Sequence record: HQ630627.1
Length of the DNA: 64,000 nt
Source of the DNA: Pseudomonas phage PhiPA3
Reading direction: 5' to 3' (one strand)
Position 1 is the first letter of the stretch. Every line of letters begins with the position of its first letter. The notes beneath the pieces are model-generated. The model made no database searches and was not told the DNA's origin. It was given only the letters and a program-made list of their open reading frames with translations. Position numbers and translations under genes: made by a program. Shown piece by piece: positions 37,459-60,317 of this stretch.

Positions 37459-37490
37459 GAGGGGCTGAGTGCCCCTCTTTATTCTTCTCT
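37459..37490 (+). terminator. rho-independent terminator (GAGGGGC-UGAGU-GCCCCUC plus UUUAUUCUUCUC)
   Basis: stem-loop plus T-rich tail. Confidence 0.65.
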
Positions 37491-37527: not shown

Positions 37528-37746
37528 ATGTCTAAATGTAAACCGGAATACACCTGGGATCGACTTCAAGAGGAGATCCTTAATAATGGAATCAAACATG
37601 TAACCCTACTAGCAACAATGCCAGATCGTGATCCTCCAAGGATCATTCATGGTGGTACATGTGAGTGCATTCACCCAATAAGAGAATTCAAAAATGCAAA
37701 ACGAGATCACCGACCCCTCTGTTATAATCTTCACTGGTTGGGATGA
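37528..37746 (+). CDS. small Cys/His-containing protein
   Basis: 72-aa ORF; RBS ccgaaggtatacccgATG; overlaps the next ORF by ~50 nt in another frame. Confidence 0.4.
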   Translation: MSKCKPEYTWDRLQEEILNNGIKHVTLLATMPDRDPPRIIHGGTCECIHPIREFKNAKRDHRPLCYNLHWLG

Positions 37747-38521
37747 GCAACAAGTCGCATTGGAGTATATCCATGCTCAACGGTTGCAAGATCTGCTGGA
37801 AATCATCCTGATGGGTAAAGATGACAACGATAATACCTATTTCGTTATCCGTCCCACGAAGGTTGCTCTGCGTGAACCAGCTGGTAGTTGGGTTAAGCAT
37901 CTGACTGCCCTCGTGTACCGCATTCGCAGTAGACAACAAAATCATTCTTCTGTACGCGTATACGCGTACAAAGTACCGCTTGACACCATCTATTCGTTCG
38001 TGACGGTTGGGGGTAGCCTCTACACGTTTACTGACGCTGAACGTGCTGAGTGTCGTTCTCTGGAACCCAAGAGCTGGTATCTCCCGATTGACGGTTACCC
38101 CAAGATCTTGAAACTTCAGATCTGTGGTAATCCTATTGCTGTGCGTAGCGCTTACAAATACCTGCGTAACGAAATGCGCACGCGTACCTACATTGGTGTA
38201 CGGGACATTAAGAAAGCCATGGCATTGATGATGGCAAGTGGTGGGGATAAGGCCTACTTGCTAGCTATCACTGAAAATGGGGTGGTCGTTAAGATCGATC
38301 AAACCAAAATGTCCATCATGGAAAGCAAGAACGAATCCAACTGGCTCATGATGGATCTCATTGCCAACCACTTCACTCAACGAGACTGTACCAAGGTCGC
38401 TGAGAACCCTGAGCGACTGTGGGATGAATGGGACCAACTCCGGAAAGACTATATTCGTGCGATGCGCAACATTGCCGAACACAAAGTCCCCAATCTCAAC
38501 GTTTCTGTAAATAACTACTAA
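37694..38521 (+). CDS. hypothetical protein, tandem paralog of 38531..39313
   Basis: 275 aa; shares Y[FL][VL]IRP motif and a ~70-aa C-terminal block (LK..[IL]..G......RS.[YR].[LW].......[IR].....[IV]..AM..M.S.......[IL]TE[ND]G.V..[IL]) with the next gene. Confidence 0.6.
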   Translation: MQNEITDPSVIIFTGWDEQQVALEYIHAQRLQDLLEIILMGKDDNDNTYFVIRPTKVALREPAGSWVKHLTALVYRIRSRQQNHSSVRVYAYKVPLDTIYSFVTVGGSLYTFTDAERAECRSLEPKSWYLPIDGYPKILKLQICGNPIAVRSAYKYLRNEMRTRTYIGVRDIKKAMALMMASGGDKAYLLAITENGVVVKIDQTKMSIMESKNESNWLMMDLIANHFTQRDCTKVAENPERLWDEWDQLRKDYIRAMRNIAEHKVPNLNVSVNNY

Positions 38522-38530
38522 GGCATTCCA

Positions 38531-39313
38531 ATGACTGACAAAGTAGCAGTAATCGCTATCCCGCGCCCACTTAGCCCCGAACACATGATCTACCTGTACA
38601 ACATGGTCGATCGACATAATGAGTCGCTCCCTGATCCTTTCTTCAACCTGGAAATGGTTGAAGATGAGGAAGGTGGTGATGGTCTCTACCTCATTCGCCC
38701 CAATGCTGGATATTACTGGGCTAGACATCGTTATACTGAAAACCTGGAAGTAATGAAATCGGAACTGATAGCACAAGATATTGGCTATCACGACTTCACG
38801 TTCGTCCGTGTTATTTTCAAAGCGATGGATACACTGAGCTATAACGGTAACCTACGCATCTTTAAGAGTCCGGAATGTGACTCTTACGAACTGGACATTC
38901 GCAAGGTAGATGTACACCTGCCGATTCCTGGAATCAGACCCAAGCTCAAGCGTATCCTGCTCACAGGCGAACATAATAGCCTTCGTAGTGTGCGTCGTTG
39001 GTTGAAATGGAACATCATCCACAACCGCGGTCGTCTGTGCCAAAACGTTATCCATGAGGCCATGAAACGCATGGGGTCTAGTAGTGTTCACTTCATCACT
39101 GAAGATGGCTTCGTGGCACGCTTGACCAAGCAAGGCATCAACATGGTGTTCGCTAATCCTCAAGCTACTGCGGTGCGAATGACTGCTTTGGCTAATGGGT
39201 TGGAGGAAGACATTTTGGTCAAAGGGCTGCGCCGTACGGAATCCCCGCCGCATGCCCCGATGTGGACCGTAATGCATGACGTCTACAGCTACAACCAAGC
39301 ATTTGCTATGTAA
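38531..39313 (+). CDS. hypothetical protein, tandem paralog of 37694..38521
   Basis: 260-aa ORF; RBS aaggcattccaATG. Confidence 0.65.
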   Translation: MTDKVAVIAIPRPLSPEHMIYLYNMVDRHNESLPDPFFNLEMVEDEEGGDGLYLIRPNAGYYWARHRYTENLEVMKSELIAQDIGYHDFTFVRVIFKAMDTLSYNGNLRIFKSPECDSYELDIRKVDVHLPIPGIRPKLKRILLTGEHNSLRSVRRWLKWNIIHNRGRLCQNVIHEAMKRMGSSSVHFITEDGFVARLTKQGINMVFANPQATAVRMTALANGLEEDILVKGLRRTESPPHAPMWTVMHDVYSYNQAFAM

Positions 39314-39379: not shown

Positions 39380-40165
39380 ATGAATCGTCGTACCGAATAC
39401 CGTTTCTCTCTGTCATACGACCGTGAGCTGGTCGCTGCTAATCCACTGGGTTTCGTGGTTGAAGAATTCCTTGGAGGCTGGTTCAAAGAACTCGAAGAAA
39501 AGATCAATCGAGATTATGTAGCTAGCTATAATGTGCCTTTCCATGGTAGCTGGAACTACTTTGAGTTGGAGCAATTCCAAAACAATGCTTTCTTCAACCA
39601 GTACCACGAAGTAATGCAGTCCCTCGAAGCATTGGAAAAACAACTGGGCGAACGCGCCGGATTGCGCATCCAGATCACAAAACCTGAGTGTGCTCTTACC
39701 CATGTACTGATTGGTCAGGATAAGATTTTGTTGTCTCCTGATTGTGGTCACGTGGGTATCCGTGTTCCAGAAGGGACAGTGGTGGCTAGCGAAAGATGGG
39801 GTGACCATAGAGATCGTAACGTAGATTCCATTGCTGTGTTTGGTGAGCATTCCAAGATGCGCTACGTTGCCAAGCAGGTGCGCTACGCATTGAAGCAAAA
39901 AGGTGTAACCACGATCGCTAACAGTTCGATGGCGCGATTCCTACATGACCTCTTCCACCCCACCTACGAAAACAACCAAAAGTACAAGTTCAACATGATC
40001 ATGTCTGACGTGTATGTATTGGTGTTATTCAAGGATGGTGGTGCTGAGATCTATGGCAAGGATCTGGGAGAGATCTTCGAAAACCATAACCTGATATTCC
40101 TAGAACGGGAATACACCATTTGTGGACAACATTTCCCGATGTTGACTGGAGACCGTTTGGTATAA
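39380..40165 (+). CDS. hypothetical protein
   Basis: 261-aa ORF; RBS aggagactccaATG. Confidence 0.65.
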   Translation: MNRRTEYRFSLSYDRELVAANPLGFVVEEFLGGWFKELEEKINRDYVASYNVPFHGSWNYFELEQFQNNAFFNQYHEVMQSLEALEKQLGERAGLRIQITKPECALTHVLIGQDKILLSPDCGHVGIRVPEGTVVASERWGDHRDRNVDSIAVFGEHSKMRYVAKQVRYALKQKGVTTIANSSMARFLHDLFHPTYENNQKYKFNMIMSDVYVLVLFKDGGAEIYGKDLGEIFENHNLIFLEREYTICGQHFPMLTGDRLV

Positions 40166-40167
40166 TC

Positions 40168-41694
40168 ATGGAAACATTGATACATTACTACGACCTGTTC
40201 ATGACAATCAGTCAGAAGAACATGGTCATGGGGGGTGTAATTGGAGCGGGGATTGGTGCTTTCTTCTGGAGTGTCCTTCGGGGCATTCCGAGGAAGACCA
40301 TCAACGCGATTAAGTCGCAGTTGATATCCACGCTCCATATCACCAACGTGGGGAATCAGTTTAACGAGAAAAACTTCGATGCTTTCATGGAGTGGTATCA
40401 GAAGCAACCGTTGGCTGGGTATAACCGAAGACTCAGTGCGAACACAGTTGACGACTGGGTATCGTCCGATGAGAGAAAACCAACGATTGGGGTTGGCTTC
40501 GGTTTACACTTCTTCATGTACCGTGGGCGACTGTTTTGGTTTAATAAAGTTCGGATCGACGGTAACCAATCTGCCGTAGATAAGCAGGAGATTCTGATCC
40601 ATGGGTTGACACGTGATAAACAGCTCCTGGTAGACATGGTGGAAGAGTACCGTGTTAAGCGAAAGAAGAATGGCCTGACGATCTGTCATTGGGACGGCAA
40701 TCGCTGGGGCAACGAGATTGAAGTCACCAAACGTGATCTATCAACCGTTGTTCTGAACAATGAGATCAAAGCTGGACTGATGCGTCGAATGGAGGAATTC
40801 TATTCTGGACGCGCGTGGTATGATGAACGTGGGCTACCCTACAAGTTCACGGTAGTTTTCCACGGGCCACCGGGTACAGGTAAATCGTCTTTGGCTAAAG
40901 CATTCGCTTCTCACTACAATAAAAATGTCAGCACGATGTCTTTGGCAGCCATGTCGAACGATACCCTGCGGCGAGCTTTCCTGACGCTGCCTAAAGGGAA
41001 CATCCTACTCATCGAGGACTTTGACGATACACCTGCTGTCAAAGATCGCTTGTCTTCTGATCCCGTTAAATTGGAAAACGAGATTAAGCGAATGGAACGT
41101 GAATATAAGCTGGAGTATATCGGCCATCTGTTTCCGGACATGCAGGAGTATGAGAACAGTGTCCAGCGCTACGTAGCTATCGATAAAGTTGCCATTATGG
41201 CAGACCTTAGCCACGAGCCTGCCGGTCTCAGTGTCAGCATGGGTGGTGTTCGTGATGAGATTGAAAGCCAGGGCTACCAGATGGGCCCCGTCAGTATTGA
41301 TGACTACGCAATTTGTCAACGGTACGCTGAGCTTTTGGTTAAGCGCGATCAGGGTGTACAGTTTGATACGAGTTCAGGCTTGACTTTATCGGCGCTGCTC
41401 AATGCGCTCGATGGGATCGTTCCTTTGGATGAAACGATGGTTATCATGACTACTAACCATCCAGAAAACCTGGACGCTGCATTGACTCGTAAGGGTCGTG
41501 TGGATTACATGGTCGAGATCCCGTTGTTCCAAGATGCGGAGGTACGTGAGTACATCAATCTCATGTTCCCGGATTACGAGGTCCCTACGGATATTCGTTT
41601 CCGGCCCATTGCAGGTTGCGATGTCATGGCGGCCTTCAGTGAAAACCGGACCTGTCCAGAATCGATGATTCGCGCCCTACCTAAAGTAGCATAA
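40168..41694 (+). CDS. BCS1-like AAA+ ATPase with N-terminal transmembrane anchor
   Basis: track 40120..41694; ATG 40168 after the upstream stop. N-terminal TM MVMGGVIGAGIGAFFWSVL. Regions HFFMYRGRLFWFNKVR, VVLNNEIKAGLMRRMEEFYSGRAWYDERGLPYKFTVVFHGPPGTGKSSLAKAF, ILLIEDFDD and LLNALDGIV align by eye with mitochondrial BCS1 (HWFRYRGRWIWVERSR, ...YLLYGPPGCGKSSF, LVLLEDVDAAF, LLNALDGV). Confidence 0.85.
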   Translation: METLIHYYDLFMTISQKNMVMGGVIGAGIGAFFWSVLRGIPRKTINAIKSQLISTLHITNVGNQFNEKNFDAFMEWYQKQPLAGYNRRLSANTVDDWVSSDERKPTIGVGFGLHFFMYRGRLFWFNKVRIDGNQSAVDKQEILIHGLTRDKQLLVDMVEEYRVKRKKNGLTICHWDGNRWGNEIEVTKRDLSTVVLNNEIKAGLMRRMEEFYSGRAWYDERGLPYKFTVVFHGPPGTGKSSLAKAFASHYNKNVSTMSLAAMSNDTLRRAFLTLPKGNILLIEDFDDTPAVKDRLSSDPVKLENEIKRMEREYKLEYIGHLFPDMQEYENSVQRYVAIDKVAIMADLSHEPAGLSVSMGGVRDEIESQGYQMGPVSIDDYAICQRYAELLVKRDQGVQFDTSSGLTLSALLNALDGIVPLDETMVIMTTNHPENLDAALTRKGRVDYMVEIPLFQDAEVREYINLMFPDYEVPTDIRFRPIAGCDVMAAFSENRTCPESMIRALPKVA

Positions 41695-41725
41695 ACAGAG
41701 AGGCCTTCGGGCCTCTCTTTATATT
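41695..41725 (+). terminator. rho-independent terminator (AGAGAGGCC-UUCG-GGCCUCUCU plus UUAUAUU)
   Basis: stem-loop after the AAA gene. Confidence 0.7.
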
Positions 41726-41741
41726 CAAATCCATTTAAAGC

Positions 41742-41750
41742 CTACATTAC
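41742..41750 (+). promoter_or_regulatory. promoter-like element, core CTACATTAC (class B: ccatttaaagcCTACATTACaagctTGAT)
   Basis: conserved 9-mer 27 nt upstream of ATG 41778. Confidence 0.5.
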
Positions 41751-41777
41751 AAGCTTGATAACCCAAGGAGTTAAATT

Positions 41778-42128
41778 ATGTCTATCAATCTAATCCGAGA
41801 GGATTGCCGTTATGCCCTGAAGTACGCAGATCTTTTCGTAGCCGCTGCGCTCCAGGGTTCTTCGGACTTTTATATCGACTCGTGCATGGGTATGCTTGCC
41901 GCGCACGGCGATAAGTCCGAGCAGTATCGTGACTACTGGGTCTCCCGTGGTCTCGACTATAAACGGGCTCAGCTGGTTTACCTGCTGACCTTCACCAAAC
42001 TGTTGGGGGCTACTCCGAAGCATCATTCGAAAGAGTGGGTGCTGACGAACTACCACAACTACGTCCCCATCTTTGAGCAACTGGAGCGTGATCATGGAAC
42101 TGAACAAACGCATCAAACTTCTTCATGA
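41778..42128 (+). CDS. hypothetical protein
   Basis: 116-aa ORF; RBS ccaaggagttaaattATG. Confidence 0.6.
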   Translation: MSINLIREDCRYALKYADLFVAAALQGSSDFYIDSCMGMLAAHGDKSEQYRDYWVSRGLDYKRAQLVYLLTFTKLLGATPKHHSKEWVLTNYHNYVPIFEQLERDHGTEQTHQTSS

Positions 42129-42417
42129 AATCCTGGGTCAATTCTCACCACTCGGTTCGATCATGAGTGACTACGAGGATGTGACCTTCGTCAATCTAAC
42201 AGTAACCAAGCGTGAGCCTGGCGTACTGGAATACAAAGTTACTTATAAACCCAAAGGTGATCTGTTCAAGCAGGTCGGTGCTTGGGATGCAGTGGTTGTG
42301 CTGAAAAGCCAATCGCAGGTCATTAACCAAGTTATCCTGAAGTCGATATTCGGTAAGTCCATCGAATGGGTATCGACCATGGACGACGTTGCAGAAGAAC
42401 TCTCGCCTACCACCTGA
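42094..42417 (+). CDS. hypothetical protein (start uncertain)
   Basis: track 42073..42417; in-frame ATG at 42094 (MELNKRIKLL) overlapping the upstream gene. Confidence 0.45.
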   Translation: MELNKRIKLLHEILGQFSPLGSIMSDYEDVTFVNLTVTKREPGVLEYKVTYKPKGDLFKQVGAWDAVVVLKSQSQVINQVILKSIFGKSIEWVSTMDDVAEELSPTT

Positions 42418-42428
42418 GAGTGAAAGGT

Positions 42429-42590
42429 ATGAACAAACTGCTAAAATGGGAATTGGACTGGGTGGCTAGCCACCCAGAACACTATCGCGACGCACGGCAT
42501 CAGTCGTATGTACAGAAACGAATTGCCGCGCGTTATCTCCTCAACTGGTTCACTAAAGCAGCTCGTGTAAAAAATCACCAGAGTTCCTAA
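42429..42590 (+). CDS. small basic protein (53 aa)
   Basis: track 42366..42590; ATG 42429 with RBS gagtgaaaggtATG; followed by a hairpin. Confidence 0.4.
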   Translation: MNKLLKWELDWVASHPEHYRDARHQSYVQKRIAARYLLNWFTKAARVKNHQSS

Positions 42591-49452: not shown

Positions 49453-49541
49453 TGGCGGAAGCGCAGAGATTCGAACTCTAGGGGCCCTTTGGACCCGTCT
49501 GATTTCAAGTCAGGTGCCTTAAACCACTCGGCCACGCTTCC
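49453..49541 (-). tRNA. tRNA-Ser (anticodon UGA), type II with long variable arm, CCA encoded
   Basis: minus strand: GGAAGCG acceptor, GCCGAGUGGUUUAAGGC D-arm, anticodon loop CUUGAAA, variable arm CGGGUCCAAAGGGCCCC, T-arm UAGAG-UUCGAAU-CUCUG, acceptor CGCUUCC-G-CCA. Confidence 0.8.
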
Positions 49542-49547
49542 ATTGTA

Positions 49548-49640
49548 CATTAGTCGTAACGATGTTTTAACCAGCGTAAACTACCGGCCCGAAGGTGGGC
49601 CGCCCGAGGGTGTTGAACCCCCGATTCTTCGTTACGACTA
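49548..49640. other. structured spacer between tRNA-Ser and tRNA-Thr with a 12-bp terminal inverted repeat (UAGUCGUAACGA ... UCGUUACGACUA) and internal GC hairpins; possible degenerate tRNA or processing element
   Basis: inverted repeat plus GGCCC-GAAGGU-GGGCC and GGGGG-UUCAACA-CCCUC (T-arm-like on the minus strand) but no canonical cloverleaf. Confidence 0.3.
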
Positions 49641-49652
49641 AATTTCTGAATA

Positions 49653-49729
<77 letters not shown>

Positions 49730-49813
49730 AATATGTGACTAGGTAGAACGAGTGCACTTTTCGCATCCAATCAACCCAAGTTAGGAAGATAGATACCACG
49801 CGCAATACCCTAG

Positions 49814-49838
49814 TCACATATGGTAATACACTGAGTAT
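49814..49838 (-). promoter_or_regulatory. minus-strand bipartite motif ATACTCA-N11-TATGTGAC (~85 nt upstream of tRNA-Thr)
   Basis: member of the WTACTCA...TATGTRR family (7 copies on the minus strand). Confidence 0.4.
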
Positions 49839-49884
49839 AGTTTTACTTACAATGACGCAATGGACCACAGTTCGTTATTCTGGC

Positions 49885-49925
49885 TAGATCCGGCATAAAG
49901 GGAACCCGAAGGCTCCCTTTATTCG
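49885..49925 (-). terminator. terminator after the Kelch gene (minus strand reads AAAGGGAGCC-UUCG-GGUUCCCUUUAUGCC)
   Basis: near-perfect stem, UUCG loop on the minus strand, TTATGCC flank. Confidence 0.6.
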
Positions 49926-49944
49926 CTGCTGGTATCTGACCACA

Positions 49945-51804
49945 TTAACTAGGGTTATACACGTACAGTGTTTTCTGTATAACGTTCCCAGGCTGTACGC
50001 CACCCGACACATATATCATGCCATTGACAGATGCACACGAAATGTCGTTACCAATTACAGGTAGATCAGGTAGTTGTTTCCATGTATTAGCAACCACATC
50101 ATATTCCCAGAAATCACTGAACGTTTGTGAAGCTGAAGCACCACCGACAATGTAAACCTTATTGCCAACTGACGCCATACCAAACGAAACTCTTGCCTGT
50201 ATAGCGGTGGGGACATTGGCTAGCTTTGTCCATACACGGGTATTCAAATCCAGTACATGGACATCCCTCGACATGGTAGTTCCATTCAACCAACCAAATG
50301 CCAAGACTAGTTTACCCGCAGCAATAGCCATCCGACCATTCTTGCGTGGTGGGGGTGTGGAACCAGAAACCGATGGTTTAGTCCATTTATTTCCAGTACC
50401 GTCCAGATTGTACTGATAAAGGGCATTGTCAGTTGGACCACTATCACCGAACATATAAAGACTTCGTCCATAAGAAGCCATGCAGTGACCCATTCTCCAA
50501 CTGGGCATTGCGCCATCAGTAATTGAACTCCAGGTATTTACACTGGGGTCGTATGCAAACATATCCGGTGAAGAATTAGATCCACTGAAAATATAAGTCT
50601 TCCCATCTATTGTTGCACCAGCGGTTTCATGCCTTCCTGGTCCTTGGACAGCATCTTCGCTCCATGTGTTCGTATATGGATCGTAACTGTAATTGGTATT
50701 TGTTACCACCGCGCCAGTAGATCCGTAAAGAACCCTGTATTTACCAGCACTCTCAACCCCAACAGCACTCCGGCGACCCGCAGGCATATCGGCTAGCTGT
50801 GTCCATTGGTTCTTCTCAATTGATGGGGCTAATCGAATGCGATAGACATCTTCTAAGAGGTTTGCTTTCAAGAAATATCCTTGGCTGGACATTGGAACCT
50901 TGGTACCACCACTGACAATCATATCCCCATTACCCATCGGTGCAACGGAAACGATGTTTCTATAAGGGATATTCAACTTCAGTGGTTCAGCAAATCGCTT
51001 AGTTTTAATGTGGAATCGTTGTGCATACATTTCACCATTAACGACGTTAATATAGTTGTAGTAATCGCCAGTAACGTATCCGTTACCCTGCCACACCACT
51101 CCTTTATCTTCCGGTAACGTCATCCATGGCGTTTGTTCCCAGGTACCTGCTGCATTATTGTATCTATAAACGTCGAGATACAATCCACCCTTGTCATTAT
51201 TCCAACCACCAAAATGGTAGAAGTAACCATCGTAGTAAAAAAGCTGCTGCCCTGAGCGTGTATCACCGGCGTAGTTTTGACCAGCTTTCCAATCATTAGT
51301 AGCCGGACGGAGTCTAATAGAGTTATTGGAAGTACCGTTCGCTATCATTACGTCGGTACCACCGTCAGAAGCTGCCGCTGTACCATAGAACGAAAATGGC
51401 CCAGGTACAGTGCTCACTCTGGCGCCAGTTGCCTTAGTAAAGCGCTGCATTCTATTGGTCAGACCAGTACCGCCCATACCCGCAGAGTCATATCCGGTGA
51501 TACCACCGAATGTAAAGAACTCTCCGTTATGCATTACATGGTAGCCGATAGAAAAACCAGGGGAGAACGTTCCAGCTGTGGTTGATCCAATATACGAGAA
51601 AGGTTCCAACGTATACTGCCTGAATACGGTCCCTGCTACTGAACCTTCAGTATGGTGACCAGAACCAACAAACAGTGTGTTACCATCCACGTAAGAAGAT
51701 GAACCTCCTAACGCTACTCCTAAATCACCTAGTTTATCTATCCTCCCAAAACCGGTTAAAGGTAGCTGCTCGCCTTTTCCTGACGAAAGTAATATTTCAA
51801 ACAT
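49945..51804 (-). CDS. Kelch-repeat beta-propeller protein (galactose-oxidase-like fold; candidate tail fibre / host-recognition or carbohydrate-binding protein)
   Basis: 619 aa with repeated Kelch-type units (e.g. VYIVGGASASQTFSDFWEYDVVANTWKQLPDLP, IYVSGG...LYVYNP, FYHFGGWNNDKGGLYLDVYRYNNAAGTWEQ). Confidence 0.7.
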   Translation of the reverse strand: MFEILLSSGKGEQLPLTGFGRIDKLGDLGVALGGSSSYVDGNTLFVGSGHHTEGSVAGTVFRQYTLEPFSYIGSTTAGTFSPGFSIGYHVMHNGEFFTFGGITGYDSAGMGGTGLTNRMQRFTKATGARVSTVPGPFSFYGTAAASDGGTDVMIANGTSNNSIRLRPATNDWKAGQNYAGDTRSGQQLFYYDGYFYHFGGWNNDKGGLYLDVYRYNNAAGTWEQTPWMTLPEDKGVVWQGNGYVTGDYYNYINVVNGEMYAQRFHIKTKRFAEPLKLNIPYRNIVSVAPMGNGDMIVSGGTKVPMSSQGYFLKANLLEDVYRIRLAPSIEKNQWTQLADMPAGRRSAVGVESAGKYRVLYGSTGAVVTNTNYSYDPYTNTWSEDAVQGPGRHETAGATIDGKTYIFSGSNSSPDMFAYDPSVNTWSSITDGAMPSWRMGHCMASYGRSLYMFGDSGPTDNALYQYNLDGTGNKWTKPSVSGSTPPPRKNGRMAIAAGKLVLAFGWLNGTTMSRDVHVLDLNTRVWTKLANVPTAIQARVSFGMASVGNKVYIVGGASASQTFSDFWEYDVVANTWKQLPDLPVIGNDISCASVNGMIYVSGGVQPGNVIQKTLYVYNPS

Positions 51805-51867
51805 GAGTATGATCTCAAGTAATCCATCGTTGCATAGGATTAACCTTTATTATAATTGGGTAGACGA

Positions 51868-51898
51868 TATAAACCCACCCGCAATGGGTGGGTTTATG
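51868..51898. terminator. bidirectional-looking terminator (AAACCCACCC-GCAAU-GGGUGGGUUUAUGCC)
   Basis: 7-bp GC stem flanked by A-run and T-run; downstream of minus gene 51902..52783. Confidence 0.6.
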
Positions 51899-51901
51899 CC
51901 A

Positions 51902-52783
51902 TCAGACTAAAATAACCCTAGCTACCGGATGGAATCTTCCACCAAATTCTGGCTCTACTTCACGGGTTTCCCCTACCAGATTTATTTGGACAAAGTATCC
52001 AGGTCTAGTTGGACTTTCAGTGGAGGTTATATACCAAGCATCAGGAGGATCTTGTATATAGCCATAATCGGTCCTGTACGGTACTTTATCTCCACGCATC
52101 ATGATAGCTGGACCTACGTACTTAATGAACTCATCCACCGTAGGACACCAACAGAACATTCTTACGCCAGCAATACCGTTATAACTGCGCGATTGAATAA
52201 CACTACCACCAAATGCGCTGATAGCTTCGGGACTAAATACCGTGGACATGTCTTTCTGGTCACCGGTTCTATCGCCCAACCAACTCCAGTTATACAAAGC
52301 TGTTACGGACCAACCGTCGGCAGCCGGGTAAATACTGGTGCAGATGTATTCATCGTCGTAGGTATAGATTCTTAACCGAGTGCGAAAAAGATCATCATCC
52401 ATGCCATGACCCCTGTCACCGGTTATATCAGTAAAATCAATCCATCTTGGCGGTCTAATACCAGCCCAAGACACAGCGACCAAAGAATTATGCTCGGACG
52501 TTTCTCTAAAACCATAAGGCGCCAATACTCCAAGTCTTGGATCATTATGCCTGAATGTTTTAACATCCGAATAATAGCTTCCCCAATCCATTACATATTC
52601 AAGTAAGTACCAATACTGGAAACCCAGTAAGGTATTGTACTCGATGATACCTATCGTACCTGGATAACTTACCCAATCAGTCGGTAATGTATCTTTTGTA
52701 AATGGCTCGTTAGCCACGTACAGTCGATATTCCTTAGGCAAGTTTAGAGAAATGGTTGGATCTAAATAAAGATGGATGCGCAT
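51902..52783 (-). CDS. hypothetical protein (Trp/Tyr/Gly-rich; likely structural or carbohydrate-binding, operon with the Kelch gene)
   Basis: 293-aa ORF. Confidence 0.65.
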   Translation of the reverse strand: MRIHLYLDPTISLNLPKEYRLYVANEPFTKDTLPTDWVSYPGTIGIIEYNTLLGFQYWYLLEYVMDWGSYYSDVKTFRHNDPRLGVLAPYGFRETSEHNSLVAVSWAGIRPPRWIDFTDITGDRGHGMDDDLFRTRLRIYTYDDEYICTSIYPAADGWSVTALYNWSWLGDRTGDQKDMSTVFSPEAISAFGGSVIQSRSYNGIAGVRMFCWCPTVDEFIKYVGPAIMMRGDKVPYRTDYGYIQDPPDAWYITSTESPTRPGYFVQINLVGETREVEPEFGGRFHPVARVILV

Positions 52784-52784
52784 G

Positions 52785-53642
52785 TTATCCTCCGTTACCG
52801 ATCAAGCGCAGCGCCACTTTCCAATAAATTTTATACAAACTGGTATTCACATCCGGTGCAGTGATAAAATTGTCAGGATAAAATTTAGTCAGTCCAGCGC
52901 GGGAGTATAGCTTCTGTGTCACGTAGGAGGAAATCCTGTTTGCAACTACGATCGTATCTTCAGCTACATTAAGGAAACCAGCAGCGGCTTCAACGATACT
53001 CTTACCCCGTACTTCATGCTCTATATTCTCCAAGTACTCGGCATCGCTGTCGCAATAACTGTTCATGATGTATTCAGCCGTATTGGACATATCGAAAGCA
53101 TAGGTGAAATCGTTGATGGTGATTAACTTACCACTAGACAGCTCGGTGAGCACGTCATATAAATTCTCTGGCAGTATCTGTAAGTAACCCCCCAATGCAG
53201 TGTAGTAGTAATCACCGTTAAGATCATTGAGCTTAGTCCACTTATTGGTCCAGTTACCAATCACCAGTCCAGGTATATTCAATGCAGTGATCAATTCATC
53301 AGCCGTAGGCAATTGAGGGTCTTGTGTTACCCCAATAACCTTACCGAAGACATGTTGGCTCATTGACGAGCGCAGTTCACTACCAGGACCGTATAGACCA
53401 CTTGCCTTCATGGTAAACTGAGGACTAATGGCCTTGGTATTATTGAACACTGTCTGAATACGGTAGTTATACGTCGACCCACCAACTGCGGTAACGTCCC
53501 TGAAAGAGTTAGCAAATCCATCCAATACTGCAATGGGTGAATCTGTCGGGTCTTCTGGGATTGGGGTATCCACTGGAGTACGGAAAATGTTTATAACTGT
53601 ACGATCGGGTGGATTGGGGTTCTTAAATTCAAACTGAATCAT
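52785..53642 (-). CDS. hypothetical protein
   Basis: 285-aa ORF; start overlaps the upstream stop (ATGA). Confidence 0.65.
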   Translation of the reverse strand: MIQFEFKNPNPPDRTVINIFRTPVDTPIPEDPTDSPIAVLDGFANSFRDVTAVGGSTYNYRIQTVFNNTKAISPQFTMKASGLYGPGSELRSSMSQHVFGKVIGVTQDPQLPTADELITALNIPGLVIGNWTNKWTKLNDLNGDYYYTALGGYLQILPENLYDVLTELSSGKLITINDFTYAFDMSNTAEYIMNSYCDSDAEYLENIEHEVRGKSIVEAAAGFLNVAEDTIVVANRISSYVTQKLYSRAGLTKFYPDNFITAPDVNTSLYKIYWKVALRLIGNGG

Positions 53643-53977
53643 TAATACACCTCAAACGTCGGCATGTACGGAGTAGCGAACTCTACTTTAAGATCAGTTA
53701 CGGGTTCAGCATGGGCGTCCATTGGGTCTTCTAATCTAACCTTAATAAGACGTGCAGGCAAGCTGCCTCCGAGGTAATTAATAACGACGTAAATGATGTT
53801 GTCTTTACCCGCACAGATGGTATCTTGGCCGGACTGGTGAGGGTGGTCTATATTGCGAAGAACGGCACTCCAACGTCTGTTCAACGGCATCCATTGATAT
53901 ACTGGGAATCTAGGATTACTCGATATCGGGAATAAAGTCGACGGAACATAGAACAGTGTATCACGCCAGATATGCAT
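53642..53977 (-). CDS. hypothetical protein
   Basis: 111-aa ORF. Confidence 0.55.
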   Translation of the reverse strand: MHIWRDTLFYVPSTLFPISSNPRFPVYQWMPLNRRWSAVLRNIDHPHQSGQDTICAGKDNIIYVVINYLGGSLPARLIKVRLEDPMDAHAEPVTDLKVEFATPYMPTFEVY

Positions 53978-53984
53978 TCAACCT

Positions 53985-54015
53985 TTTGACGGAATAAAAG
54001 AGTAGCCGAAGCTAC
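53985..54015 (-). terminator. terminator after the tRNA-Asn/Tyr unit (minus strand reads GAGAGUAGC-UUCG-GCUACUCUUUUAUU)
   Basis: 8-bp stem, UUCG loop on the minus strand, T-run. Confidence 0.6.
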
Positions 54016-54026
54016 TCTCGTTATAT

Positions 54027-54112
54027 GGTGGTTGAAGGAAGGAATTGAACCTCTAGCCTAGGCGGGGGTGTTACAGACCCCTGACAGTAGCCATCTGTCT
54101 ATACATCAACCG
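54027..54112 (-). tRNA. tRNA-Tyr-like (anticodon GUA), type II length (86 nt), non-canonical D-arm
   Basis: minus strand: acceptor GGUUGAU/UUCAACC-A-CCA, anticodon arm GGGGU-CUGUAAC-ACCCC, T-arm AGAGG-UUCAAUU-CCUUC closely resembling E. coli tRNA-Tyr; the D-arm region (GACAG...CUGUC) does not fit standard spacing. Confidence 0.5.
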
Positions 54113-54267
54113 AAGGTGTGGAGACTCCATTTGACCGCTCTGGAACCTCTCCGAATTTGGGCGGCATTTTTATTATACTGAGCTCCCCGCAGTCTCTCAG
54201 TCCCAGGCGGCCAGCTTTGGGCTGCTGACCTTACGCTCGGTGTGACTGTTGTTAACAGTCAGTGTTT

Positions 54268-54343
54268 GGCTCCGGAAACATGATTCGAACATGTGACCCA
54301 CAAGTTAACAGCTTGTTGCTCTACCAGCTGAGCTATTCCGGAA
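54268..54343 (-). tRNA. tRNA-Asn (anticodon GUU), CCA encoded
   Basis: minus strand: UCCGGAA-UA-GCUCAGCUGGUAGAGCA-ACAAG-CUGUUAA-CUUGU-GGGUC-ACAUG-UUCGAAU-CAUGU-UUCCGGA-G-CCA. Confidence 0.85.
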
Positions 54344-54475
54344 GGAAATTTGACGGTTTGCTTTTTCAGAGTGGGGGAACACCGACAACCCTCTCACCAA
54401 TGCAAGCGTTTGCTCACCTGGCTTTGCGAGGACAGAATCGTTAGCCCAGTGGGCGATTGCATTTCCTCGTATACT

Positions 54476-54492
54476 ATTACATACTGAGTAAG
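54476..54492 (-). promoter_or_regulatory. minus-strand motif TTACTCAG-TATGTAAT immediately after the stop of 54493..54732 (~133 nt upstream of tRNA-Asn)
   Basis: short-spacer member of the WTACTCA/TATGTRR family. Confidence 0.45.
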
Positions 54493-54732
54493 TTATTTAT
54501 TTTCATCGCAACGCCAACCGTACACTGTGTAGTTCCCATTATCAGAAACTTTCATGGCGGTAGCTGTGCGTTGAATCTCTACGTTCGGTAGATTCTTGAA
54601 CTTACTGTATTGTATTTCTAGGTGGTTGAGGCATTGGGGCATGGAGTCAAACTGAATGTAGGACTTCTCTACATTAGTAATACCAAACAACCCTACCTTA
54701 GCAACCAGTGCTAACATGGCTACCTTGACCAT
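54493..54732 (-). CDS. hypothetical small protein
   Basis: 79-aa ORF. Confidence 0.5.
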   Translation of the reverse strand: MVKVAMLALVAKVGLFGITNVEKSYIQFDSMPQCLNHLEIQYSKFKNLPNVEIQRTATAMKVSDNGNYTVYGWRCDENK

Positions 54733-54739
54733 TGCTATC

Positions 54740-55033
54740 TTATTCCGTGTGCTTCAGATATTTCTCCAAAGCTTCGTGGGCTCGGTTGAAATACACCAGC
54801 GGAACGAACGAAACATTGGTGACTCGATGTTCGTCATGCAGTTCCCACTTGATAGCCTTTACTTGGCCATTGGGGAGAATGATATCAAGACCATTAGGGA
54901 ACAATACAATCCCTTCGTCAATCCTGATATGCTCGGGAGCAGCAGCTCCACCACGAAAAGCCGGGTTGAAAGTCAGGTTGTATAGTTTTTGAATAAGCGG
55001 CGTAATAATCGCCTGTTGCATTTGACTTTCCAT
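54740..55033 (-). CDS. hypothetical protein
   Basis: 97-aa ORF. Confidence 0.5.
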   Translation of the reverse strand: MESQMQQAIITPLIQKLYNLTFNPAFRGGAAAPEHIRIDEGIVLFPNGLDIILPNGQVKAIKWELHDEHRVTNVSFVPLVYFNRAHEALEKYLKHTE

Positions 55034-55380
55034 TATCTTCCCCTATTGTTGTTGTATGGGGTAACGGTTGCAACTATCGACATGCCCTTAAAGAAAGGAT
55101 GATAATCAAACGCAAGAATACCGGTTTCCTGTACCAGCCAGAAGGTAAGCCTGAGTGTATCTCCATTGTCCCCACGAATGGATATCTTACCTTCTGTACG
55201 GCTACGCTTGTCTACGTAACCGACTTGCACTTTGGCAGCGGGATAGATTTGACCGCGACTGTTCATCAACCGAACGTTAGAAATCCCAAACGAGTCGGTG
55301 ATCTCCGGCTGAACATTCAAGTCCTTGTAAATCGGATAATGGTTTTGTGCAATCGGAATCGTTACGTCTTGGTCAATCAT
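55033..55380 (-). CDS. hypothetical protein
   Basis: 115-aa ORF, ATGA overlap with the downstream gene. Confidence 0.55.
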   Translation of the reverse strand: MIDQDVTIPIAQNHYPIYKDLNVQPEITDSFGISNVRLMNSRGQIYPAAKVQVGYVDKRSRTEGKISIRGDNGDTLRLTFWLVQETGILAFDYHPFFKGMSIVATVTPYNNNRGR

Positions 55381-55502
55381 GCCATGCTTCCTTTAATAAT
55401 GGCTACGGTACCGGACCGAAACCGGTGACTGCTCGCAGTACCCCGCAGCGGATACCCAGTGTTGAATCCAAGGAGTATGCAGAGACTGTCGAGATCTCCA
55501 CA

Positions 55503-55528
55503 TACCAATTCCCTTTGAGTAACTTTTA
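55503..55528 (-). promoter_or_regulatory. minus-strand bipartite motif TTACTCA-N11-TATGTGGAG directly after the stop of 55526..56032
   Basis: long-spacer family member, ~120 nt upstream of ATG 55380. Confidence 0.4.
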
Positions 55529-56032
55529 GCTAAAGCGGATTACGAGGATGTCATTTCCAAAGGTGTCTGCTACCCATTGGTTGAATTCCTTATCAGTAAT
55601 CCCTCGAAGATTTAAATTGTAGGAAGCATTGTCTACAAGTAGATACTTTAGCCGTTTGGAGATATCTGAATTGAAGTCTTTTTGGATCGAGTATTGCTCG
55701 GGGTGACGAATGTACTTACGTAGCCTTTCAGTGATTAGATACGGTAATGTCAAGCCTGGACTCTTAGACTGAATACCCCGTTGAATTTTATCGTCCGTGA
55801 ATACAGCCAGGCATTCCCCTTGATGTCGAGTAGCGAATTCAACGAGTGCACTACTGCTACCACATTGACGACCTACAAAGAACCCTACGGTACGACATTC
55901 GCGAATCAACACGTGTGACGAGATATTACCTCGATGGTATTCCCAACCTTCATTGGTTTTTTGGATCAATGCATCCAGGATGTCCTGGTAATTTACAATA
56001 GTTCTTACGAACCGATTATAGCCATTGGCCAT
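55526..56032 (-). CDS. hypothetical protein
   Basis: 168-aa ORF. Confidence 0.6.
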   Translation of the reverse strand: MANGYNRFVRTIVNYQDILDALIQKTNEGWEYHRGNISSHVLIRECRTVGFFVGRQCGSSSALVEFATRHQGECLAVFTDDKIQRGIQSKSPGLTLPYLITERLRKYIRHPEQYSIQKDFNSDISKRLKYLLVDNASYNLNLRGITDKEFNQWVADTFGNDILVIRFS

Positions 56033-56304
56033 GATTATCTCCGGTATTACAATGCAACATAAAGTCCCGCCCTAGGGCAGGACCTGATGCCGACTTTGGA
56101 AAGGTCTCGTCGTCCCTTCCTCATCTACATGCGAACTTTGTTAGTGGATACAAATAACGAGATTCGCGCGTCTTTAGTCGCCCCAACGACTTCCCACAGT
56201 ACCATTAACTTTCCACTAATCGTCTCTGGTTTTCCGGGTGCTATAAGCATATCAAGTCAATGCAGTCTGCGGGGCTCGGGTGAGAGTGGCACCGCCTCGA
56301 TATG

Positions 56305-56347
56305 GTAGCAATTAGCTACATATCATCGCAACGCCAGTATATTTTCA
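56305..56347 (-). promoter_or_regulatory. degenerate minus-strand motif AATATACTGGC-N10-TATGTAGC after the stop of 56348..56704
   Basis: shares the AATATACTGGC 11-mer with the copy at 57545-57575. Confidence 0.3.
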
Positions 56348-56704
56348 CTACCAGCGACTGGCACTGAATGGACGAGGATATTCAAGGCCAGCAATATCTT
56401 TACCGTTAACCACGACTACCCATTGATTCATGGTGGCGGTCTCACGGTAAACGATTGTTGGTTTAATCTCTTCACGAGTATACGTGGTTGCATACCATTC
56501 ACGCCAAACATCAATCAGACGGGCTTCCATGATTTCACGTAGTTGAGCCATGTTCCAGGTGCTATTTCCCGCTAGATCAGCCACTACCTCGCGAAGTCCA
56601 TCTAGGTATTTCTCATTTACATGGGGTTCGCCCCGGTTAGCCAATAGCTTCTCGTTGTTTGCATCCCGATCTGCTTGACTTATGAATATACGATTCGTAG
56701 TCAT
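56348..56704 (-). CDS. hypothetical protein
   Basis: 118-aa ORF; ATGA overlap with the upstream gene. Confidence 0.55.
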   Translation of the reverse strand: MTTNRIFISQADRDANNEKLLANRGEPHVNEKYLDGLREVVADLAGNSTWNMAQLREIMEARLIDVWREWYATTYTREEIKPTIVYRETATMNQWVVVVNGKDIAGLEYPRPFSASRW

Positions 56705-57171
56705 TTTCTCAGTCCCTCAATCTCAGCACGTAAAAATGAACTAATCATACCTGCTGCTTTTCGAGTGGGCGAATCAAACATTTTGTCATTCCCGGCTACT
56801 GAGTCAGTAACTTTCTGAGCTAGTATCAGTCCAGGGATATAAGCACGATTACCATGAGTTGCGATGCGTGGTTGATCACGATAATACTCAACGTGATGAT
56901 AGCCACTAGGATGCACTACGATAACTTTGATGCTATCTCGTTCCCTAGTAATTTCGATCTTGAAATCGGACAATCCATCTTCAATCAAAGCAATCGTCAG
57001 CTTGCATTCCAGGACCTGGAAGAGTAGCTTGTCTGTGAGATGCGGTTGATTCTGAATCGTAATGGGCGCATTGAAATACAGCAAATCCCTGATACGGGCA
57101 CCGAATACTTTCTGTTCAGTGGTATCCAGATCTCTTTGCAGTTGTTCTTCGTTGTTTTGGCTCATTACCAT
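56701..57171 (-). CDS. hypothetical protein
   Basis: 156-aa ORF. Confidence 0.6.
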   Translation of the reverse strand: MVMSQNNEEQLQRDLDTTEQKVFGARIRDLLYFNAPITIQNQPHLTDKLLFQVLECKLTIALIEDGLSDFKIEITRERDSIKVIVVHPSGYHHVEYYRDQPRIATHGNRAYIPGLILAQKVTDSVAGNDKMFDSPTRKAAGMISSFLRAEIEGLRK

Positions 57172-57300
57172 TGTCCTTTGTCTCTATGAATTTTGTCGTA
57201 TTTGATATAATAGTCTCTACCGCAGTGGGCACACCACTTGTAAAGACGGCCGCCTTGACATTGATTTCCAACTAGCTTGTGGCCCAATAGCCAGCACAGT

Positions 57301-57528
57301 TTACACCGTATTGAGTAGAGCTTCGACACGTTGCGTCCCCTGGCAAACCAGAACTGGTACTTCGATACCTTTCTCCTCGCAGTATTTTACGAGATCTTCA
57401 TGTGCCTTTCGCCACTGCTCCAGCAGCTGCCGATTCCGAATGCGATTAGCTTCCTTTTCTTCGGGAGTCAGTTCTGTTATATTACGAACACTGAGCTTGG
57501 GGATGGGATGGTATTCAGCAGATTTCAT
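57301..57528 (-). CDS. hypothetical small protein
   Basis: 75-aa ORF with RBS ggagatccaatATG on the minus strand. Confidence 0.55.
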   Translation of the reverse strand: MKSAEYHPIPKLSVRNITELTPEEKEANRIRNRQLLEQWRKAHEDLVKYCEEKGIEVPVLVCQGTQRVEALLNTV

Positions 57529-57544
57529 ATTGGATCTCCGTTTT

Positions 57545-57575
57545 CTCTATAATGGAAAGGAAGCCAGTATATTCT
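57545..57575 (-). promoter_or_regulatory. minus-strand motif AATATACTGGC-N11-TATAGAG ~20 nt upstream of ATG 57528
   Basis: family member positioned like a promoter for 57301..57528; divergent from + promoter element 57590-57598. Confidence 0.4.
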
Positions 57576-57589
57576 AAATATCTAGAGGC

Positions 57590-57598
57590 CTATATTAC
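57590..57598 (+). promoter_or_regulatory. promoter-like element, core CTATATTAC (class B: tctagaggcCTATATTACaattgTGAT)
   Basis: 52 nt upstream of ATG 57650. Confidence 0.5.
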
Positions 57599-57649
57599 AA
57601 TTGTGATATCCAGAAGAGATATCATTCAATAACCTAAGAGGAAACTACA

Positions 57650-57844
57650 ATGAACGACAACATCATCGATTTCGAAGCTTACCGTAACAAGAACAACGGT
57701 AAGCGCAAGATGAAGAAGATCAAGAACGGCGTGTTCAAAGCCATCGACGAAACGCTGGATGATCGGGTCATAGAAAAAGTCCGTGACGTTACTATCTGCG
57801 CGGCTGTGGTTGGTATCGTCTGGTATTGCCTCACCCGTGATTGA
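57650..57844 (+). CDS. small protein with C-terminal TM segment
   Basis: 64 aa; RBS gaggaaactacaATG; followed by a terminator. Confidence 0.55.
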   Translation: MNDNIIDFEAYRNKNNGKRKMKKIKNGVFKAIDETLDDRVIEKVRDVTICAAVVGIVWYCLTRD

Positions 57845-57847
57845 TTA

Positions 57848-57895
57848 TTAGGGAGCCCTTCGGGGCTCCCTTCTATATCTTTTTTCTTTTTGTCT
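57848..57895 (+). terminator. rho-independent terminator (GGGAGCCC-UUCG-GGGCUCCC plus U-rich)
   Basis: stem-loop then ttctatatcttttttctttttg. Confidence 0.75.
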
Positions 57896-57908
57896 GATAC
57901 GACATAAA

Positions 57909-57932
57909 GGAAGTAGCCACCGCTACTTCCTT
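57909..57932 (-). terminator. terminator after tRNA-Leu (GGAAGUAGC-loop-GCUACUUCC, A/T flanks both sides)
   Basis: 9-bp perfect stem immediately downstream of the tRNA 3' end. Confidence 0.55.
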
Positions 57933-57940
57933 TATTTAAT

Positions 57941-58025
57941 TGGTACCCGAAGTGGGACTCGAACCCACACGTCACAAGGACAACTGATTTTAAGTCAGCA
58001 GCGGCTGCCTTTACGCCATTCGGGC
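57941..58025 (-). tRNA. tRNA-Leu (anticodon UAA), type II, CCA encoded
   Basis: minus strand: GCCCGAAUGGCGUAAAGGCAGCCGCUGCUGACUUAAAAUCAGUUGUCCUUGUGACGUGUGGGUUCGAGUCCCACUUCGGGUACCA, closely resembling E. coli tRNA-Leu(UAA). Confidence 0.85.
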
Positions 58026-59894: not shown

Positions 59895-60317
59895 CTACTT
59901 CAGGATCTTGGTCTGACCCGAACTCATCTTAAGGATCGTAACCTCAGCTCCTACACGTGGTTCGCTATTGCTAATGGCTTCTACGAGTTGCTTGGAGCCA
60001 TCAACATCAACAACCATGTTGCAGGTATAGGTCTTCACGGACGAGACATCATTTCCAATGGCGCTTCCGATAGCTGCGCCTGCCAGTCCGCCGATCCATC
60101 CCCCAGATTTGCCGAACAGTGCTTTTTCAACAACTGCACCACCGACACCCCCAGCCGTCCCCCCGACGGCAGTCCCTACTACAGAAGTATCTTTCGCTAC
60201 CAGAGTACAATCACTCCTGCGAACGACACCTGTGGATTCTGATACGATCTCATCTGCATGGACCGTAGTACTGCCCAACATCAGAATCAGGGCAATCGCT
60301 TTAAAGTTCGAATTCAT
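59895..60317 (-). CDS. secreted glycine-zipper protein (signal peptide plus GxxxG-rich segment, SlyB/Rick_17kDa-like)
   Basis: track 59895..60473; likely start MNSNFKAIALILMLGSTTVHA-DE at 60317 (RBS aagggcgaactggATG), which overlaps the last ~17 nt of nrdB; the Gly-zipper GGTAGGVGGAVVEKALFGKSGGWIGGLAGAAIGSAIG. Confidence 0.5.
   Translation of the reverse strand: MNSNFKAIALILMLGSTTVHADEIVSESTGVVRRSDCTLVAKDTSVVGTAVGGTAGGVGGAVVEKALFGKSGGWIGGLAGAAIGSAIGNDVSSVKTYTCNMVVDVDGSKQLVEAISNSEPRVGAEVTILKMSSGQTKILK

Follow-up and report, generated by a model that had tools for sequence, protein, structure and literature searches.

A Bcs1-family AAA+ ATPase with a predicted membrane anchor and a clade-specific insertion in Pseudomonas phage PhiPA3

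Bcs1 is a membrane-anchored AAA+ ATPase that forms a homo-heptameric ring with two chambers split by an N-domain seal, and its cargo is the Rieske Fe-S protein of complex III. To our knowledge, it is the only AAA+ machine that moves a folded protein across a membrane. Bcs1 is usually regarded as a mitochondrial speciality that replaced the twin-arginine translocation (Tat) system; bacterial Rieske proteins are exported by Tat. Tat is the established route for folded proteins over the bacterial inner membrane (PMC7994207). Orthologs of BCS1 have been reported in jumbo phages (Iyer et al., 2021; Viruses 13:63, PMC7824862). Here we analyzed a stretch of 64,000 nucleotides (sequence record HQ630627.1, hereafter the window) from PhiPA3, a nucleus-forming Pseudomonas jumbo phage (Chimalliviridae). 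In this window, an earlier note made from the letters alone had described the product of the gene at 40168-41694 as a membrane-anchored, BCS1-like ATPase. The Bcs1 homology is already contained in public domain annotations and in the 2021 paper, and PhiPA3 provides a further member.

Identity, domains and membrane anchor of gp345

The open reading frame runs on the + strand from an ATG at 40168 to the stop codon at 41692-41694 and encodes 508 aa. An in-frame TTG at 40120 is an alternative start that would add 16 residues; the ATG is the better start because homologs begin at the MET(L/M) position. The protein was 100% identical to PhiPA3 gp345 (RefSeq AVT69_gp345, 'hypothetical protein'). Further, it matched PHROG 7485 (E = 7e-176), belonged to the orthologous group of phiKZ gp286, and was 54% identical to phiKZ gp286 over the full (100%) length. 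There was no essential difference between the two proteins; phiKZ gp286 has the same length, the same insertion and a conserved upstream neighbour, gp285. Gene numbers of PhiPA3 vary by source (RefSeq gp345; UniProt 'Uncharacterized protein 347'), and the row labelled gp347 in a published supplementary table carries a remark on a Walker A/B ATPase. The features of gp345 are as follows, with conservation read from 114 aligned homologs.

40168-41694, + strand: Bcs1-family AAA+ ATPase (gp345), 100% identical to the PhiPA3 protein; BCS1_N plus AAA; Bcs1 was top in PDB sequence and fold searches
40222-40278, + strand: N-terminal transmembrane helix (aa 19-37), from Kyte-Doolittle hydropathy and uncharged alignment columns; predicted N-out/C-in
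40279-40323, + strand: basic stretch RGIPRKTINAIKSQL (aa 38-52), directly after the transmembrane helix
40264-40749, + strand: Bcs1-specific, beta-rich N-domain (BCS1_N, aa 33-194), from Pfam; its fold aligns with the Bcs1 N-domain
40864-40887, + strand: Walker A GPPGTGKS (aa 233-240); G233, G236, G238 and K239 invariant
40927-41001, + strand: segment from beta2 to Walker B, VSTMSLAAMSNDTLRRAFLTLPKGN (aa 254-278); aligns with yeast Bcs1 and has no aromatic-hydrophobic-Gly pore loop 1
41002-41025, + strand: Walker B ILLIEDFD (aa 279-286); D284 invariant, E283 in >90% of homologs
41029-41340, + strand: aa 288-391, a structured insertion of ~104 aa that parts Walker B from alpha3 at the site of pore loop 2; the Bcs1 alignment breaks here
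41380-41499, + strand: helix alpha3 LTLSALLNALDG, sensor-1 Asn430 and arginine fingers R441/R444 (RKGR), from conservation

The four peptides that the earlier note had quoted were all present (aa 114, 225, 279 and 410), and its claim of a BCS1-like N-region joined to an AAA module was borne out by Pfam, by the PDB sequence match and by the fold match. In Pfam, BCS1_N (PF08740) was found at aa 33-194 (E = 1.7e-15; 57.9 bits; profile positions 4-182 of 182), above its gathering cut-off of 28.1 bits, so that the profile search did not leave gp345 in a generic AAA family; the AAA profile matched in two separate stretches (E = 8.7e-17). When all PDB chains were searched with phmmer, the best match was yeast Bcs1 (6sh3, E = 2.9e-37), whose alignment covered residues 50-287 and 392-461, and the second was mouse Bcs1 (E = 3e-26); YjoB of Bacillus subtilis matched at E = 3.9e-15. 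The remaining AAA proteins in PDB aligned to the C-terminal half of gp345 only.

The fold search gave the same order. An AlphaFold2 model of the monomer, built on the 114 homologs, reached a predicted local distance difference test (pLDDT) score of 90.8 and a predicted TM-score (pTM) of 0.78. Yeast or mouse Bcs1 accounted for 17 of the 17 best matches of this model in PDB (Foldseek, E = 1e-25 to 4e-15), with a target-normalised TM-score of up to 0.73 against ATP-state Bcs1 protomers. Next came YjoB (2e-14), and then Cdc48 and proteasome ATPases (~1e-10). The modelled strands of aa 54-187 aligned with the N-domain of Bcs1, and G112, F116 and W180 of the gp345 N-domain were invariant. gp345 almost certainly belongs to the Bcs1 structural family; this membership is structural and evolutionary, not functional.

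Besides the Walker residues listed above, N412, D415, G416, T429, N430, R441 and R444 were invariant, and judging by these residues the AAA module is catalytically complete. The order 'ED' in Walker B, instead of 'DE', is a signature of Bcs1 and YjoB (PMC9565160), and the arginine fingers of mouse Bcs1 are R343/R346 (PMC7994207). Since the arginine fingers act in trans, assembly of gp345 into a ring is implied. The aromatic-hydrophobic-Gly motif was absent from aa 254-278 of gp345, and the homologs looked alike in this segment. In Bcs1, too, the pore loop with which threading AAA+ motors contact their substrate is absent (PMC7994207). Threading of an unfolded chain by gp345 is therefore not expected.

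Two further observations were made on the conserved parts of the protein. A G-C-D motif, usually IAGCD, at aa 483-485 (41614-41622) in the C-terminal lid was invariant in all 114 phage homologs; this region lies outside the sequence alignment with yeast Bcs1. One homolog (P0053, 807 aa) carries an intein of ~346 aa with a LAGLIDADG endonuclease domain in its Walker A loop (junctions GPPGTGK / AQPL...VVTHN / TSIIKALAS). Inteins tend to occupy conserved sites of proteins that are indispensable to the genome.

The N-terminal transmembrane anchor, also claimed from the letters, was supported by hydropathy and by the charge pattern of the homologs. The top 19-residue Kyte-Doolittle window of gp345 was aa 19-37 (MVMGGVIGAGIGAFFWSVL, score 1.83), the sole transmembrane-like segment in 14 local gene products, and no aligned column of this segment contained a charged residue. 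The net charge was -0.75 in the N-terminal ~18 aa before the helix and +2.46 in the 15 aa after it. On the positive-inside rule, these flank charges predict a single transmembrane helix with a short periplasmic N-terminus and the remainder of gp345 in the cytoplasm, that is, an N-out/C-in topology. In the AlphaFold2 model, an unbroken helix spans aa 19-52. The predicted orientation is the same as that of Bcs1 relative to the mitochondrial matrix, in which the N-terminus lies on the trans side and the ATPase on the cis side.

Bcs1/BCS1L (yeast 6sh3 and 9gs2; mouse 6uko and 8tp1) and gp345 thus have the same order of transmembrane helix, basic segment, beta-rich N-domain and single AAA module, and they have in common the ED Walker B, the lack of an aromatic pore loop 1 and two arginine fingers. 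In contrast, their identity is only ~20%, and gp345 has the 104-aa insertion and a divergent C-terminal lid. Because bacterial Rieske proteins use Tat, the cargo of gp345 is expected to differ from that of Bcs1. Tat itself is a functional analogue only: neither its sequence nor its structure is related to that of gp345, and its energy source is the proton-motive force instead of ATP.

Labels of gp345 orthologs in public records were inconsistent and included 'ftsH: ATP-dependent zinc metalloprotease' (OMKO1), 'cell division protein' (Psa21, CcrPW), 'mitochondrial respiratory chain complex III assembly protein' (RVTF4), 'chaperone protein' and 'major head protein' (Erythrobacter XM05). FtsH resembles gp345 in its N-terminal membrane anchor and its classical-clade AAA domain. 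However, gp345 has no M41 protease domain in Pfam, one transmembrane helix and not two, and no aromatic pore loop, and it scored 39.4 bits against the NCBIfam FtsH model TIGR01241 (cut-off 600). On this domain content, the FtsH label on the phage orthologs is a mis-annotation.

The insertion after Walker B and the neighbouring gene product gp344

The AAA module of gp345 is interrupted by aa 288-391, a feature missing from the earlier note; yeast Bcs1 has ~3 residues after Walker B where gp345 has ~104. Across 120 homologs, the linker between Walker B and alpha3 was 22-121 residues long, mostly 22-63, and linkers of 116-121 residues occurred only in PhiPA3, phiKZ and two further homologs (P0002 and P0005); the protein of PS119XW joins this group by alignment. 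The insertion was modelled as a folded unit of three helices and three strands (AlphaFold2, pLDDT mostly 74-94). The identity between PhiPA3 and phiKZ was 28% in the insertion and 55-72% in the other regions of the ATPase, and that between PhiPA3 and PS119XW was 13% in the insertion and 20-58% elsewhere (45-58% when the N-terminal 40 residues were excluded). The insertion thus diverges two- to four-fold faster than the remaining protein. A search of 1.84 billion representative proteins with aa 287-395 returned only its own cluster and two weak repeat-like matches, and hence gave no domain assignment. In AAA+ proteins, pore loop 2 follows Walker B and faces the ring axis. Seven copies of this 12-kDa insertion at the pore-loop-2 site could form a cap or a docking platform.

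The long insertion occurred together with a particular gene immediately upstream.

39380-40165, + strand: gp344 (261 aa, phiKZ gp285 family), candidate adaptor or cargo; its stop codon ends 2 nt before the ATG of the ATPase gene

The 261-aa product was 100% identical to AVT69_gp344 and 60% identical to PHIKZ285, the gene of which overlaps PHIKZ286 by 4 nt; in phiKZ, a hairpin parts PHIKZ284 from the PHIKZ285-PHIKZ286 pair. A gene for 250-275 aa abutted the ATPase gene in five of the five relatives with long insertions, namely PhiPA3, phiKZ, PS119XW (gp361) and two metagenomic loci (L006 and L007), and the five upstream genes were joined transitively by BLASTP (1e-118, 2e-24, 2e-4 and 2e-24). 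In seven relatives with shorter linkers, the upstream gene was unrelated to the gp344 family (7/7). Further, homologs of gp344 were confined to 41 records of Pseudomonas phiKZ-like phages, in each of which they adjoined the ATPase gene. The long insertion and gp344 thus arose together in one clade, which suggests that the two form a functional pair. Both the clade-specific, structured, fast-evolving insertion and its strict association with the gp285/gp344 gene appear to be new observations.

gp344 itself had no Pfam domain and no transmembrane segment, and its structure model, from three sequences only, had a pLDDT of 46 and was too poor for use. A Tat signal at its 'RR' (MNRRTEYRF) was rejected, as no hydrophobic h-region follows and one homolog has KR.

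Distribution, expression and possible function of the family

A tblastn search found the gp345 family in 160 of the 50,697 records of a phage collection. Megablast with 39380-42500 (3.1 kb) matched nothing in this collection, which evidently does not contain PhiPA3 itself; the nearest records in it are phiKZ-like phages, at ~54-60% protein identity. Among 60 family records sampled evenly down the ranking, 54 had genomes of at least 200 kb, and all of the 120 best database homologs lay on contigs of at most 362 kb. The hosts include Pseudomonas, Klebsiella, Erwinia, Ralstonia, Serratia, Vibrio, Caulobacter, Brevundimonas, Tenacibaculum and Microbacterium. Most members are 410-460 aa long, without the long insertion and without a gp285-like neighbour.

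A non-exhaustive scan of 185,579 bacterial and archaeal species (one genome per species; two peptide patterns, 11 sequences) yielded, among the matches listed, identities of at most 34% over more than ~70 aligned residues; these were largely matches to the AAA core and came largely from metagenome-assembled genomes. Thus, homologs in defence islands, for which the earlier note had proposed a search, were not seen as close relatives among those matches.

In the BFVD database, ATPases of giant eukaryotic viruses (Klosneuvirus, Catovirus, Medusavirus, Pandoravirus and Mimivirus) had the same overall fold as gp345 (E = 1e-27 to 1e-16). These are likewise large DNA viruses with Bcs1-like ATPases; they differ in their eukaryotic hosts, in an identity to gp345 of 14-20% and in that their genes may stem from host Bcs1. 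The phage proteins were far closer to one another than to those of giant viruses (top BFVD match, E = 3.5e-45). From the distributions in phage records, the database, the prokaryote scan and BFVD, the family is a feature of large viruses, among phages almost exclusively jumbo phages; it is not specific to the phage nucleus and, among the matches listed, was not seen on defence islands.

Published data on the phiKZ ortholog bear on the stage at which the protein acts. Transcript counts of phiKZ gene 286 were 3541, 4784, 1564, 955 and 1011 at 5, 10, 15, 20 and 30 min, respectively, and were held at 3400-5000 under knockdown of ChmA (PMC12571901 source data). Since the transcripts peak early and stay high with nucleus formation blocked, 286 is an early gene. 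PHIKZ284 had a similar pattern, and the transcript of the major head protein rose ~6-fold by 30 min (PMC12571901). Antisense knockdown of 286 left plaque-forming units unchanged and lowered ChmA ('++'), and the gene was listed as non-core and uncharacterised (PMC12571901). The gp286 protein has been detected by mass spectrometry. On these data from the ortholog, the gene aids early infection, as seen in ChmA accumulation, and is dispensable for plaques in the laboratory.

Proximity labelling with ChmA-miniTurboID in PhiPA3 placed gp343-gp345 among ~90 low-abundance proteins (-log10P = 0.43; Enustun et al., 2023); with entries of low abundance and no significance, we did not adopt an association with the nucleus. 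In the literature searched, no localisation, activity or cargo has been reported for the phage members.

By analogy with Bcs1, the architecture of gp345 is read most economically as that of a machine that handles folded protein at the inner membrane. The idea of folded-protein export in the earlier note agrees with this reading to that extent. We favour gp345 as an early, accessory inner-membrane ATPase of the Bcs1 type that would handle a folded client by ATP-driven contraction, a proposal that we judge to stand about evenly between right and wrong. By this analogy, a gp345 ring would sit at the cytoplasmic side of the inner membrane of the host, or of a membrane that stems from it, and would enclose a folded client in its chamber. 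Concerted ATP-driven contraction would then insert the client into the bilayer or push it through, and the ring would not thread unfolded chains. In the phiKZ/PhiPA3 clade, the insertion and the translationally coupled gp344/gp285 would probably act together as a client-specific adaptor, or gp344 would be the client.

Several points weigh against this proposal. Translocation rests purely on homology to Bcs1, and YjoB, the closest bacterial structural relative, is a chaperone and not a translocase (PMC9565160). The 104 aa per subunit at the pore-loop-2 site could fill or reshape the central chamber, and the mechanism may then differ from that of Bcs1. The link between gp344 and the insertion comes from one clade and a single evolutionary event and is thus confounded by phylogeny. 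Further, the expression and knockdown data are from phiKZ, not PhiPA3, and the co-fractionation of gp286 with ribosomes and its cross-links, described below, are not predicted by a translocase.

A chaperone without translocation carries the most weight among the alternatives. gp345 would be a membrane-anchored holdase or remodelling chaperone that, like YjoB, serves a specific soluble or peripheral membrane client such as gp344, whose folding, assembly or disassembly would take place in the chamber. YjoB (7w42) was the next-best structural match after Bcs1, has a Bcs1-like N-domain fold, the ED Walker B and a chambered ring in common with gp345, and acts as a substrate-specific chaperone (PMC9565160); moreover, the large insertion may occlude passage through the ring. 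However, YjoB is a cytosolic, interlocked hexamer without a transmembrane helix that is restricted to Bacillales and serves as a holdase for KatA and GapB. In contrast, the transmembrane helix and the basic segment after it were retained in essentially all 114 phage homologs, and because of this conservation membrane engagement is considered central to gp345 function. The similarity of gp345 to Bcs1, in sequence and fold, was also far stronger than that to YjoB. We therefore consider such a chaperone unlikely; a cytosolic chaperone of the YjoB class proper was rejected on the conserved helix and on the phmmer values given above.

A more specific form of the favoured proposal is that gp345 is an ATP-driven folded-protein translocase that works either in the inner membrane or in the early-infection (EPI) vesicle, which derives from that membrane and surrounds the injected chimallivirus genome. 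If this vesicle forms by invagination of the inner membrane, its lumen would, by our own reasoning, be topologically periplasmic. Given its N-out/C-in topology, the ring would in that case move freshly synthesised, folded phage proteins out of the cytoplasm and into the vesicle. This would ease the transition from vesicle to nucleus, and the insertion and gp344 would be a module for cargo selection. Such import would fit the early expression and the drop of ChmA on knockdown. We regard it as distinctly improbable in this specific form.

Iyer et al. (2021) proposed that the phage proteins bind and translocate folded proteins in membrane-proximal head assembly (PMC7824862), and capsids of chimalliviruses do assemble on the host membrane (review PMC13282480). 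Further, a homolog in fENko-Kae01 was found by liquid chromatography-tandem mass spectrometry (LC-MS/MS) in a phage preparation. This preparation was a crude ultrafiltered lysate containing 220 phage proteins, including polymerases and ligases, and we did not take the finding as virion packaging. The phiKZ 286 transcript is early and falls 3- to 5-fold by 20-30 min, while that of the head protein rises, and knockdown caused no plaque defect. The early expression and the effect on ChmA speak for a function while infection is being established more than for one in head assembly, and the published hypothesis of an assembly chaperone is thereby weakened; its probability appears to us slight.

The ribosome data suggest another function, in which the ring, with gp344/gp285, would bind host ribosomes near the L7/L12 stalk and the exit tunnel and would either hold translation at a membrane or modulate it early in infection. 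Fossati et al. found that phiKZ gp286 co-fractionates with 70S ribosomes and is cross-linked to rplL, rplK and rplJ of the L7/L12 stalk, and that PHIKZ285 is cross-linked to rpmC (PMC10449902); PHIKZ285 and PHIKZ286 each showed two peaks in size-exclusion chromatography. Localised translation beside the early infection vesicle has also been proposed. However, co-elution with large particles is also possible for a ring of ~0.4 MDa or for membrane fragments, and L7/L12 is abundant, flexible and lysine-rich, so that its cross-links are weak evidence of specific binding. Further, phiKZ gp285 and gp286 were absent from the interactors of the vesicle marker gp93 and from the validated ribosome binders (gp14, gp38 and gp216), and the Bcs1 fold gives no hint of RNA or ribosome binding. 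A ribosome-associated factor is thus an outside prospect.

It is very unlikely that gp345 drives an anti-defence, superinfection-exclusion or host-takeover module, which might, for example, remove or inactivate a host membrane protein. In favour of such a motor, the gene is early, non-essential, fast-evolving and accessory, within a block of uncharacterised early genes, and its AAA core gave weak matches to TRIP13 and to the anti-phage ATPase IetA/IteA (PADLOC, NCBIfam). However, these matches are limited to the P-loop region (aa 184-260, E = 4e-11 to 6e-10) and lie far below family cut-offs (NF042959, 30.6 bits vs 510); the scan of bacterial genomes showed no close relative, on defence islands or elsewhere, among the matches listed; and gp345 has neither a protease or nuclease partner domain nor the threading pore loop expected of an extractase. 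The identity with IetA/IteA or TRIP13 was rejected, as the match was not full-length and the neighbouring genes had no domain of a partner such as the IetS protease or CBASS/HORMA. The defence or anti-defence motor suggested in the earlier note accordingly found no support, PADLOC having returned generic AAA matches only.

With the transmembrane helix, N-domain and AAA layout of Bcs1 present in a large phage clade, the design is found in bacterial viruses too, and some large phages may bring along an ATP-driven pathway of their own for folded proteins at the inner membrane of the host. If a translocase in the inner membrane or the vesicle were confirmed, translocation of the Bcs1 type would not be a purely mitochondrial invention. 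How protein and RNA get through the lipid vesicle that first surrounds the genome is a timely question for nucleus-forming phages, and gp345 is an early membrane protein. The importance of the gene is limited, as the homology has been published, the gene is outside the chimallivirus core and, in phiKZ, plaques form without it in the laboratory. The lead is well founded and will not surprise specialists.

Flanking genes and other features of the window

Four + strand genes lie between two terminator-like hairpins: those at 37694 (275 aa) and 38531 (260 aa), gp344 and the ATPase gene.

37459-37477, + strand: terminator-like hairpin upstream of the four-gene block; 7-bp stem with 6 G-C pairs, followed by a T-run
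37694-39313, + strand: two upstream genes, 275 aa (37694-38521) and 260 aa (38531-39313), weak paralogs of each other (BLASTP, E = 4e-6)
41697-41718, + strand: terminator-like hairpin 3 nt past the stop codon of the ATPase gene; 9-bp stem with 6 G-C pairs and a TTCG loop, followed by TTATATTC

No recognisable defence, protease or nuclease domain was found in the flanking gene products. Relatives of the 275-aa and 260-aa genes were present in PS119XW and in a metagenomic phage contig, and a central region with a 'GEH...R' motif was common to these two genes and gp344/gp285. An origin of gp344/gp285 as a further paralog of the two genes was not supported (hhalign probability 0.3).

The octamer TATATTAC, which we take to be an early-promoter element of phiKZ, may mark early promoters in PhiPA3. 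It occurred at seven sites in the window (82, 14327, 17110, 17964, 24133, 57478 and 57591), all on the + strand, as compared with 1.4 expected. It was not enriched in the AT-rich phiKZ locus. As no site lay within 16 kb upstream of the ATPase gene, the octamer was not used as evidence on the operon of this gene.

Elsewhere in the window, a thymidylate synthase of 476 aa is encoded at 2639-4069 (+ strand). It carries three insertions relative to solved ThyA structures (~aa 86-194, 208-247 and 297-369); the enzyme of E. coli has ~264 aa. Five tRNA genes (Ser-tga, Thr-tgt, Tyr-gta, Asn-gtt and Leu-taa) lie on the minus strand within 49453-58025, where the coding direction switches, near 49 kb. 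Close to them is a gene for a Kelch-repeat protein of 619 aa (49945-51804), and beyond this gene lie those for the small (60301-61446) and large (61551-63839) subunits of ribonucleotide reductase.

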